DNA from: Enterobacteria phage KhF2 | Strand: one strand, 5' to 3' | Sequence record: KT184314.1 | Length of the DNA: 64,000 nt | Part shown: in pieces, positions 34,319-35,823 of the stretch | Layout of the letters: each line of letters opens with the position of its first letter | How positions within the stretch are numbered: the first letter of the stretch is position 1 | Program-made: the position numbers and the translations under genes | Notes under the pieces: model-generated | What the model saw: the letters and a program-made list of their open reading frames with translations, nothing else | What the model was told of the DNA's origin: nothing | The model's database searches: none

Positions 34319-34445
34319 CACTTAAGAGTCTTTTAAAAGGGTTTTTAAGTGATGTTTGGTAAAGTATGGTTCTGTCCGGTAATGCGATGTATGCTATGGT
34401 TTGGTGTGGGTAGTTAGTCTCAGCTACATTAAAATGAGACTTACC
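34319..34445 (+). repeat. G+T-rich intergenic element, copy A (hairpin - GGT-rich core - hairpin)
   Basis: starts with CACTTAA...TTAAGTG hairpin, C-poor GGT-rich core, ends with AGTCTCA-loop-TGAGACT hairpin then T-run. Confidence 0.5.
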
Positions 34446-34569
34446 TTTTTAAAAGGTCTTTAAACAGGGTCTTTTAATAAGGTCTGGTCGTGTCCGGTTC
34501 GGTAGTGTTGGGCTTGGCTTGGTCTGGTCTGGTAAGGGTGGATGGTAGTAGCCACGTTAAAAATCTACC
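34446..34569 (+). repeat. G+T-rich intergenic element, copy B
   Basis: begins TTTTTAAAAGGTCTTTAAACAGGGTCTTTTAAT nearly identical to copy C; GGT-rich core; ends GGTAG-loop-CTACC hairpin with A-rich loop. Confidence 0.6.
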
Positions 34570-34645
34570 AAGTTTCTAAAGAGTCTTCTGTTGAGGGTTC
34601 TTTACAAACAACTTAACAATCAACTAAAGTGTGGAGCTAAATGCT

Positions 34646-35233
34646 ATGAAACTGTTAAATATCAAAATCACTGGTACTCGTCCTTTCCTGAGCCACGCTG
34701 ATACGCTGTCAGACCCGTTAAACCCTCTGACAAAATATCACAAGTCTCTGTCCAGTAAACGTAAAAAGACTGACGAAGACTATGCGCTCTTAGCAGAAAG
34801 CCAACTGGTAACCTCTTGTTACTACGATGAGCAGCTAGGTTTTGTTATGAACGGTGAGATGATTGAGGCTTGTATCAAGTCTGGTGCAAAGCTCAACAAA
34901 CTTGGTAAGGTAATTGACCGAGCCATTATGCTGACAGATGTAGTCTTCCCAATGACTATCAAGAACTGTCCAGCAAACCCACAAGAACTTGCTAAGAATC
35001 CAGATTTTATCTATGCTAAATCTGTTAAGATTGGTACAGCACGAGTTATGAGCTACCGTCCAATCTTCCGTGATTGGTCTGTAGAGTTTGGTTTGATGTT
35101 CGATGAAGAGCAAATCACCAAAGAGGAACTTCTGATGGTTCTTGAAAATGCTGGTAACCTTTGTGGTGTAGGTGATTGGCGTCCACGCTTTGGTCGTTTT
35201 TCTGTAGAAGTTATTTCAGAAGGTAACGTTTAA
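34646..35233 (+). CDS. hypothetical protein (first gene of repeat-flanked cassette)
   Basis: ATG 34646 with GGAG upstream; about 195 aa; no motif recognised. Confidence 0.55.
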
Positions 35234-35235
35234 TT

Positions 35236-35676
35236 ATGAATACGAAAGCATTAGCAGCAAAGTTTAGTTACGGTGACACTGTATCACATTCTGAGATGGA
35301 CACCTTCTTAGGTATTGTGAAACCAACTTATCAAGGTGACATTGTTAAGTACGAAGATGAAATGAAGGCTTATGCGCTTACACGTCTAAACCGACTTGAG
35401 AAGTTTATTGAGAAGCTTCTTAAAGAAGAGAAGATTTATCTGGTTGCTTCAATGGGTGTTGGTTATCGTGTGGTTGAACCTAAGCATCAAGCAACTATTG
35501 CAAAACGTAAAATGTCTGGTAAGATTGGTCGTGCTTTAAAGCAAGCCACTCAAGCAATTGAGAATGTGAACACTATGGCACTTAGTCATCAAGAACGTTC
35601 ACGGTTGATTGAACAGCAAAACCATTTAGCTGCTATGAAAGCTAACATTAACAAGCAACGCAGAAAACCTTTCTAA
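35236..35676 (+). CDS. hypothetical protein (second gene of repeat-flanked cassette)
   Basis: 146 aa, SD AAGGTAACG; basic C-terminus. Confidence 0.55.
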   Translation: MNTKALAAKFSYGDTVSHSEMDTFLGIVKPTYQGDIVKYEDEMKAYALTRLNRLEKFIEKLLKEEKIYLVASMGVGYRVVEPKHQATIAKRKMSGKIGRALKQATQAIENVNTMALSHQERSRLIEQQNHLAAMKANINKQRRKPF

Positions 35677-35688
35677 GTTGACTAGGTA

Positions 35689-35710
35689 GCCTCTTCGGAG
35701 GCTCCTTTTT
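35689..35710 (+). terminator. rho-independent terminator (GCCTC-TTCG-GAGGC plus T5)
   Basis: perfect hairpin with UUCG tetraloop followed by TCCTTTTT on plus strand. Confidence 0.6.
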
Positions 35711-35823
35711 AAAAGGTCTTTAAGAGGGTCTTTTAATGAGGTACGGCGCGGTTAGGTAAGGTCTGGTAGGGTAGGGTGAGGTTTGGTATGGAAGGATGGC
35801 AGTAGCCTTATAAAAAATCTGCC
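35706..35823 (+). repeat. G+T-rich intergenic element, copy C
   Basis: 5' 36 nt about 90% identical to copy B; GGT/GGG-rich core; ends GGCAG-loop-CTGCC hairpin (compensatory change relative to copy B). Confidence 0.6.

Follow-up and report, generated by a model that had tools for sequence, protein, structure and literature searches.

VIPR (Viral Interference Programmable Repeat) was described in a bioRxiv preprint of 25 June 2026 (10.64898/2026.04.26.720920) as a system composed of vipr, which encodes a minimal RAMP protein, an accessory gene, vap, and RNAs termed vrRNAs. The model phage of that work, the ounavirus SUSP1, has the same locus as the one treated here. In this study, we analyzed a 64,000-nucleotide (nt) stretch of Enterobacteria phage KhF2 (KT184314.1; this whole stretch is called the window), in which three repeat-bearing intergenic elements flank a two-gene cassette (34319-35823). 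We consider it very probable that the locus represents VIPR of type II (SUSP1 clade), with three vrRNAs, in a Felix O1-like phage. The kind of system is already known, from the recent preprint only, and concrete target assignments for this phage are added here.

According to the preprint (10.64898/2026.04.26.720920), vrRNAs are about 100 nt long, lie in intergenic regions flanking the genes, and contain 9-16 YNNGG repeats, in which GGY is conserved and NN is hypervariable, followed by a conserved 3′ tail that includes a pseudoknot. In SUSP1, they were seen by small-RNA sequencing as species of about 100 nt and co-purified with Vipr. The Vipr ribonucleoprotein (RNP) binds double-stranded DNA by the NN dinucleotides only, resulting in repression of transcription; one unread target base lies between successive NN (the 1-nt-skip rule), and this skipped base falls on codon position 3. 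Reporters and phage lambda were repressed in trans, silencing was abolished when GGY was perturbed, and no protospacer adjacent motif (PAM) was reported. For the SUSP1 clade, 18 of the 20 natural targets that could be assigned are in an E. coli satellite phage (10.64898/2026.04.26.720920).

Results

Repeat tracts of the three vrRNAs

The main features of the locus are as follows.

34348-34441, + strand: vrRNA A, with a repeat tract of 12 units (34348-34407) and a pseudoknotted tail (34408-34441)
34481-34569, + strand: vrRNA B, with a tract of 11 units (34481-34535) and a tail (34536-34569)
34646-35233, + strand: vipr, encoding a minimal RAMP (Cas7-like) protein of 195 amino acids (aa), assigned by homology to SUSP1 vipr
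35236-35676, + strand: vap1, encoding a 146-aa VIPR accessory protein, 99% identical to that of the SUSP1 gene directly after vipr
35740-35823, + strand: vrRNA C, with a tract of 10 canonical GGY units (35740-35789) and a tail (35790-35823)

An earlier note on this DNA had claimed three copies of one element, each consisting of a head, a G+T-rich core and a terminal hairpin. The three copies are indeed present and mutually alignable with a mean column identity of 79%, copies B and C being close and copy A more diverged, and the three-part architecture was upheld with sharper limits, the tract plus tail measuring 84-94 nt. The core was found to have a strict pentamer periodicity that was absent from the earlier note: GG(T/C) recurs every 5 nt in a single phase. 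GGT occurs in this phase nine times in copy C, seven times in copy B and five times in copy A. The in-phase GG counts of the three cores were 6, 10, and 11, compared with shuffle means of 2.7, 4.1, and 4.7, respectively; on shuffling of the core, p was 7e-4 for A, and 0/20,000 shuffles reached the observed value for B and for C. When both strands of the window were scanned, a run with GGT at nine of ten positions of period 5 was unique to the locus, and the maximum for other periods on the + strand was 3.

The NN dinucleotides, read in order, are GA TT AA AT TC CC AA GA AT AT TT GT in vrRNA A, CT CG CC TC AG TG TT TT CT CT AA in vrRNA B, in which AA may represent an extra first unit, and AC GC TA AA CT AG AG GA TT AT in vrRNA C. 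A unit logo based on 595 units from 47 distinct arrays gave frequencies of 0.76 for the first G, 0.98 for the second G, and 0.91 for T and 0.09 for C at the third position (pyrimidine, 1.0), with an entropy of about 1.9 bits at each N. Because the first G is only 76% conserved across the clade, the real motif is closer to D-G-Y than to GGY, the first position being looser than the notation "GGY" suggests. Within vrRNA A, N-G-Y is found in 11 of the 12 units and canonical GGY in only five, with TGT, AGT, TGC, and GCT elsewhere. The same looseness of the first G is seen in natural, experimentally validated SUSP1 vrRNAs.

An array of the relative Bas63 (L010 3538-3625; L numbers are our sequence handles) has grown to 17 units by four tandem copies of GGTTAGGTAT. 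This array points to slippage duplication as a route by which tracts gain units.

Proteins of the cassette and their association with repeat arrays

The 195-aa protein is 98% identical to SUSP1 Vipr, and the 146-aa protein is 99% identical to SUSP1 Vap1. They match phrog_4652 and phrog_5926, respectively, and a Pfam search gave no family for either. Vipr is a minimal single-domain RAMP protein with an RRM core and a Cas7/Csm3/Cmr4-like fold. In an alignment of 31 homologues with 35-50% identity, G170, G174, R179, G183, and F185 were invariant in a C-terminal motif, which is consistent with the RAMP G-loop. The two-gene locus is minimal, vap1 lying immediately downstream of vipr and the neighbors being the DNA ligase gene and a 127-aa gene. 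No CRISPR repeat family was detected in the window by Rfam, and no cas genes or repeat-spacer array were found at the locus.

We also scanned IMG/VR blindly with six consecutive GGTNN units. Besides Felix-like contigs and plain microsatellites, the pattern recovered many unrelated viral contigs, whose arrays are heterogeneous, 60-155 nt long, intergenic and on the coding strand, often with several per contig. Contig L043 likewise has arrays on both sides of a two-gene cassette, the first protein of which is 35% identical to the 195-aa protein (E = 2e-45) and also matches phrog_4652. Furthermore, when a hidden Markov model (HMM) of Vipr built from homologues was used on stretches of a few kb around the arrays, a matching open reading frame (ORF) was found in more than 25 array contigs. 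These matches beside arrays in unrelated contigs indicate that the array and the protein travel together over large evolutionary distances.

A jumbo-phage-sized IMG/VR contig of 189 kb (3300029288_001872; L045-L049) carries at least ten heterogeneous GGTNN arrays of 90-120 nt, and those of L049 are flanked by + strand genes, among them genes for sugar-nucleotide enzymes. A search of the stretches retrieved from this contig (L045-L049) revealed no Vipr homologue, so that either vipr lies elsewhere on the contig or this is another kind of orphan array.

Targets in an E. coli satellite

The window was compared by megablast with 5,426 complete E. coli genomes, and chromosomal matches were obtained in 401 of them (about 7%). 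All of these matches correspond to the Dit-like baseplate gene (48687-49493, − strand) and the tape-measure gene (49493-51721, − strand), mostly at 90-95% identity, and positions 1-25000 of the window gave no match in the E. coli genomes. The matches fall within islands of some 11-13 kb, the insertion site being mdtG, yecE (DUF72), or a position beside tonB. The islands contain a large serine recombinase gene, the baseplate and tape-measure homologues, a gene for a protein of 235-236 aa, for which Pfam gave no family, and small ORFs. Such an island fits the satellite of the preprint and presumably exploits Felix O1-like phages.

Subsequently, ten satellite variants, eight from E. coli genomes and two from IMG/VR, were scanned with the NN strings under the 1-nt-skip rule. 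vrRNA A matched at 24/24 positions in L138 (L138:12042) and in L150 (E. coli ECONIH2, NZ_CP014667.1; L150:14786), where the satellite is situated between yecD and yecN, and at 18-23/24 positions at the homologous site in the other eight satellites. The target covers codons 43-54 of the 235-236-aa gene, GAG TTA AAG ATG TCA CCA AAG GAA ATC ATC TTT GT (ELKMSPKEIIFV), and the skipped base is the wobble position (codon position 3), as in the preprint. In the controls, shuffling of the unit order gave a maximum of 20, and a skip of 0, 2, or 3 nt gave a maximum of 18. An exact-pattern scan of IMG/VR with ten units of vrRNA A returned three sites, two of which are in satellite homologues. A score of 23/24 for vrRNA A in an AT-rich, unrelated contig (L137) was judged to be a chance match, there being no satellite homology in that contig.

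The vrRNA A allele of phage HY02 (L011) matched the L139 satellite allele at 24/24 positions (L139:350). The difference between the alleles lies in unit 2 (34353-34357), which has TT here and CT in HY02, the respective targets having TTA and CTA. Two vrRNA A alleles, each perfect on a different satellite allele, form a direct footprint of an arms race between phage and satellite.

The best match of vrRNA C was 18/20 at L139:175(-), a site that precedes the start codon of the 236-aa gene by 50-75 nt, with weaker matches at the homologous site in other satellite variants. None of 100 shuffles reached 18, the maximum on shuffling of the unit order being 17. For vrRNA B, the serine recombinase gene of satellite L134 gave the best match, 18/22, in which seven units in a row are perfect; this assignment is tentative because 2/100 shuffles score equally. 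Across the clade, 27 of 47 distinct vrRNAs reached at least 80% on only seven satellites. No self-target was found in the window, where the best scores were 16-17 for all three guides.

The satellite region targeted by vrRNA C (L139 120-200; L150 14910-14990) contains TTTTTAAAAAG...CTTTTTAAAAA motifs, which resemble the beta heads of the phage (TTTTTAAAAGG) described below.

Pseudoknotted tail and head hairpins

The terminal hairpin of each copy has an A-rich loop. The four tail types of the clade align without gaps as GG-[GUAG/GUGG/AAGG]-WU-[7-nt arm]-G-[CUAC/CCAC/CCUU]-RUWAAAA-[7-nt arm], forming a hairpin and an H-type pseudoknot in which 92% of the cells are paired, compared with 29-38% when the partners are slid. 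Nine of the 11 pairs change on both sides: six of seven covary in the hairpin and three of four in the pseudoknot helix, the pseudoknot being 100% paired. This covariation is between a few paralogous tail types and hence represents few independent events. The compensatory stems that the earlier note had pointed out (GGTAG/CTACC, GGCAG/CTGCC, and AGTCTCA/TGAGACT) are thus real, and the covariation that it proposed to look for by alignment and folding was found to reach into the pseudoknot. A search for the element in Rfam returned no family: at gathering thresholds, only two tRNAs were matched in the window, and no match was obtained at E-values up to 1 in 34200-35900.

A conserved head hairpin stands before every vrRNA. 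The heads are long, A/U-rich hairpins with several G.U pairs, which work on the + strand only, and two types, alpha and beta, are distinguished. Among relatives, the loop of the alpha head is variable and carries a 24-nt insertion in bumzen and Mijalis, the stem being retained; the beta head has 14 sequence variants, mostly with differences in the loop. These 5′ head hairpins are not described in the preprint text consulted (10.64898/2026.04.26.720920), and they may serve as maturation or processing signals or as insulators. A head-like match at 17280-17304 of the window was rejected as an unrelated GAGGGTC/GACCCTC hairpin.

Arrangement of the locus

The closest match of the window was phage KhF1 (97.8%), and the phage is a Felix O1-like myovirus (Felixounavirus). 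The locus is situated in a block of + strand genes between the DNA ligase gene (33150-34250, + strand) and the 127-aa gene (35916-36299). The block is concerned with replication and nucleotide metabolism, with the ligase on one side of the locus and dihydrofolate reductase (DHFR) and thymidylate synthase on the other. The remaining features are listed below.

34258-34285, + strand: promoter P1 (TTGACA-16-TATACT), matching 11/12 consensus positions and present in all relatives read
34316-34354, + strand: 5′ head hairpin of the alpha type (CAUCACUUAAG...UUAAGUGAUG) before vrRNA A; RNAfold, −15.5 kcal/mol, 18 pairs
34446-34478, + strand: 5′ head hairpin of the beta type (UUUUUAAAAGGUCUUU...AGGGUCUUUUAAU) before vrRNA B; RNAfold, −10.6 kcal/mol
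34573-34608, + strand: third head-like hairpin, with no array; RNAfold, −13.6 kcal/mol; kept in the loci of 15 relatives
35688-35710, + strand: intrinsic terminator after vap, AGCCUC-UUCG-GAGGCU followed by U5, identified by terminator scan and sequence; stem-loop at 35688-35703
35706-35737, + strand: 5′ head hairpin of the beta type before vrRNA C, identified by alignment and folding
35843-35871, + strand: promoter P2 (TTGACA-17-TATTTT) of the next gene, with 10/12 matches; downstream limit of the locus

The promoter claimed in the earlier note at 34258 was borne out by its consensus match and its conservation. P1 would drive the upstream vrRNAs and probably also vipr-vap. The array-less hairpin lies between the tail of vrRNA B and the ribosome-binding site of vipr, and the U-run of the terminator overlaps the beta head of vrRNA C.

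Two inverted repeats were also observed. A 9-bp repeat, TGGTGAGTA (34273-34281) and TACTCACCA (34306-34314), is conserved in all relatives read; the TGGTGAGTA arm extends over the initial two bases of the P1 −10 element, whereas the TACTCACCA arm is transcribed early. This repeat may serve as an operator, or transcripts that read through from the ligase gene may form an alternative hairpin with it. A perfect 12-bp repeat, AATAAGCTATAA (35825-35836) and TTATAGCTTATT (35858-35869), has the −35 element of P2 between its arms, overlaps the −10 element of P2 and precedes a T-run. It could be a weak terminator at which vrRNA C transcripts end, or else an operator, a gene for a helix-turn-helix (HTH) regulator being located two genes downstream.

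Relatives, loss of the cassette, and orphan vrRNAs

The search of related phages suggested in the earlier note detected the element in 230 Ounavirinae phage records (Felixounavirus, Suspvirus, and Mooglevirus), at one to four or more places per genome. In ten relatives that we read, every array is on the coding strand, with 1-5 arrays per locus, and heads, tails, and promoters are nearly invariant; in the arrays, only G-G-Y is kept and the next two positions are free. vipr was found in 117 Ounavirinae records, compared with the 230 with the element. Bas63 corresponds to garuso without the interval that separates two beta heads, the flanks being 99% identical, and in Felix O1 an alpha head is joined to a C-type (last) tail, the junction that a deletion between two alpha heads would leave. 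From these junctions, head-to-head recombination accounts for the loss of the cassette; recombination between the repeated heads, the apparent substrates, thus seems to remove the cassette and could also insert it.

About half of the element-bearing records are without vipr and vap, yet have one or two arrays behind P1. The whole genome of Felix O1 (86,155 bp) has a single array, and the HMM detected no Vipr homologue in it (lowest E-value, 0.27). Eight vipr-less phages contain at least four different orphan arrays, all behind P1, with an intact tail and N-G-Y in every unit. Orphan arrays are also present in SP4 and EC6. The orphan vrRNAs are located as follows.

L006 3020-3110: orphan vrRNA of Felix O1
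L004 2521-2600: orphan vrRNA of ASO1A
L010 3405-3640: orphan vrRNAs of Bas63
L142-L147: further orphan vrRNAs

The first orphan array of Bas63 scored 21/24 on a satellite and is nearly identical, unit for unit, to an array of garuso. No target of at least 80% was found in the ten satellites for the Felix O1-type orphans. The exact pattern of the Felix O1 orphan gave nothing in IMG/VR and a single match among GTDB genomes, in a metagenome-assembled genome (MAG) of Ignavibacteriaceae, which was judged to be due to chance. The preprint (10.64898/2026.04.26.720920) contains neither the word "orphan" nor the word "Felix", and the PhageMaP paper on Bas63 contains nothing on this intergenic region. 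We hold it conceivable, although rather unlikely, that the orphan vrRNAs are functional and not relics, being either loaded on Vipr that a co-infecting relative or a satellite provides in trans, or used as decoys that soak up the Vipr of a competitor. If this were true, decoy orphans would be an RNA anti-VIPR.

Discussion

We propose the following scheme for the VIPR locus of KhF2. Transcription from P1 would produce vrRNA A and vrRNA B, followed by vipr and vap1, and vrRNA C lies after the operon terminator. Each vrRNA consists of 10-12 five-nt units of the form (G/D)-G-Y-N-N capped by the pseudoknotted 3′ tail; the head hairpins would punctuate or process the transcript, and copies of the small Cas7-like Vipr would assemble along the repeat tract. 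The resulting RNP would read double-stranded DNA through NN alone, as NN-x-NN-x and so on with a 1-nt skip, and its binding would repress transcription of the target. vrRNA A would be directed to codons of the 235-236-aa gene of the satellite, vrRNA C to the region just upstream, and vrRNA B possibly to the satellite integrase gene; the purpose would be to silence a parasitic satellite and so to shield the phage, whose tail genes this parasite borrows. By analogy with the SUSP1 system, whose Vipr is 98% identical, the RNAs are expected to be expressed as species of about 100 nt, loaded on Vipr, and to bind double-stranded DNA with repression of transcription.

Several points weigh against this scheme. 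The RNA, formation of the RNP, and repression in this phage are carried over from SUSP1, and the source paper is a preprint. Only five of the 12 units of vrRNA A are canonical GGY, and disturbed GGY is reported in the preprint to abolish silencing. vrRNA C lies downstream of a canonical terminator, which makes its expression in this phage less certain. No convincing target was obtained for vrRNA B, the score of 18/22 being reached by 2/100 shuffles, and the exact 1-nt-skip patterns of vrRNA B and vrRNA C found nothing in IMG/VR.

Other explanations of the three elements were considered. They might be passive recombination modules resembling the promoter-early stem-loop (PeSL) cassettes of other phages, whose sole role would be gain and loss of the two-gene cassette by homologous recombination. 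The cassette is indeed polymorphic (117 records with vipr, 230 with the element), and the junctions in Bas63 and Felix O1 fit head-to-head deletions. However, sequence identity is sufficient for recombination, and the strict 5-nt N-G-Y period with hypervariable NN, the covarying pseudoknot, and the NN strings that spell satellite sequences under one spacing rule would all be left unexplained; passive modules would account for a side effect of the repeats and not for their function, and we regard them as very unlikely. The earlier suggestion that the elements are recombination boundaries of a mobile cassette therefore holds in a passive sense, in that cassette-less relatives look like head-to-head deletions, but the elements are also partners of the cassette protein. 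A related suggestion, a structured RNA family, was right as to non-coding RNAs with a covarying 3′ module, whose SUSP1 homologues are transcribed, whereas the core is a programmable guide code in single-stranded RNA and not a fold.

A replication origin primed by transcription, in which G-rich non-template DNA downstream of a promoter would form an R-loop that primes the leading strand, as in T4 oriF/oriG or ColE1, could be expected from the strong sigma-70-like promoter directly upstream, from a transcript that would be G-rich and C-poor, from the location within the block for replication and nucleotide metabolism, and from the many T7-primase-like GGTC/GTGTC sites in the sequence. We consider an origin scarcely credible, since near-identical phages have anywhere from 1 to 5 copies, copy C is behind a terminator, selection acts on the exact N-G-Y period and not on G content (first G, 76%; pyrimidine, 100%), and unrelated phages have the same arrays, several per genome, beside Vipr homologues. 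The R-loop-prone origin of the earlier note is unsupported in view of the conserved period, the variable copy number, and the NN that spell satellite sequences. The elements might also act in cis and not as guides in trans, either as a platform for an RNA-binding protein that forms a ring or filament, with TRAP-like attenuation or a translational leader, or as two-tier G-quadruplexes (G4s). Conserved triplets with 2-nt spacers in 10-12 repeats recall the 11 (G/U)AG repeats of B. subtilis TRAP, A and B are in the 5′ leader of vipr, and GGNNNGG spacing could in principle give two-tetrad G4s. A regulator in cis, however, needs no hypervariable NN that match a gene of another element at 24/24; moreover, C is downstream of the operon, vipr-less phages retain arrays upstream of an unrelated gene, and the preprint reports repression of reporters and phage lambda in trans. 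A G4 needs GG, but TG, AG, or GC is present in 24% of the units, and conservation of the pyrimidine at 100% against 76% for the first G misfits selection for G-tracts or G-richness, which also leaves the G-quadruplex regulatory elements of the earlier note unsupported. A platform acting in cis is thus extremely improbable. Five initial ideas were dropped because the NN encode satellite sequences. These were a TRAP-like ring protein that would bind GGU at 5-nt intervals, clustered primase sites of the T7 type (GGGTC/TGGTC/GTGTC), an origin with R-loops like those of immunoglobulin switch pentamers, a sponge that would take up the CCA ends of tRNA, and Rho-utilisation sites on the opposite strand.

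VIPR has been proposed as RNA-guided DNA recognition older than CRISPR, with a gapped, reprogrammable code. The present assignment shows VIPR in a phage of the Felix O1 type; such phages are in wide use for typing and biocontrol of Salmonella and E. coli. In addition, the class is recovered across unrelated viral contigs by a simple pattern of six GGTNN units.

Comparison with known systems

The leader RNA of the trp operon bound by TRAP in B. subtilis has about 11 conserved triplets with 2-3-nt spacers and is single-stranded and bound by many identical subunits. Its likeness to the KhF2 locus, a periodic triplet tract in single-stranded RNA, is an analogy only. Unlike VIPR, TRAP is a closed 11-mer ring with another fold, recognizes (G/U)AG, and acts by attenuation in cis, and its spacers carry no information. 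The PeSL cassettes of T4-type phages were reportedly described by Arbiol et al. in 2010. They are similar in that repeated intergenic modules with a promoter and a stem-loop flank small gene cassettes and mediate their gain and loss by recombination; they differ in being regulatory or recombination modules only, with no periodic coding tract and no partner protein.

Class 1 CRISPR-Cas systems (types I, III, and IV, with a Cas7 backbone on the crRNA) and VIPR both have base pairing that is periodically interrupted, one base in six being flipped out in the Cascade and Csm complexes, and they also have in common a Cas7/Csm3/Cmr4-like RAMP fold and a variable guide capped by a structured handle. 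Both form an RNP with a guide RNA (for VIPR, 10.64898/2026.04.26.720920). In contrast, the VIPR locus is without a repeat-spacer array and without adaptation genes (Cas1/Cas2), and its guide is non-contiguous, with two of five guide nt reading two of three target nt. VIPR is carried by a virulent phage, its target is another mobile element, and no PAM is reported for it. The KhF2 locus does not qualify as CRISPR-Cas, given that its repeats are 5-nt units within each RNA and only the RAMP fold is in common.

The VIPR system of SUSP1 is alike in its slot, with the order DNA ligase, locus, 127-aa gene, and HTH regulator, in Vipr (98%) and Vap1 (99%), in P1, the heads, and the tail types, and in having the satellite as the same class of target. 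The two differ in host genus, Felixounavirus here and Suspvirus for SUSP1, and in arrangement, with two vrRNAs upstream and one downstream here and one upstream and three downstream in SUSP1. All NN strings, and hence the individual target sites, are different.

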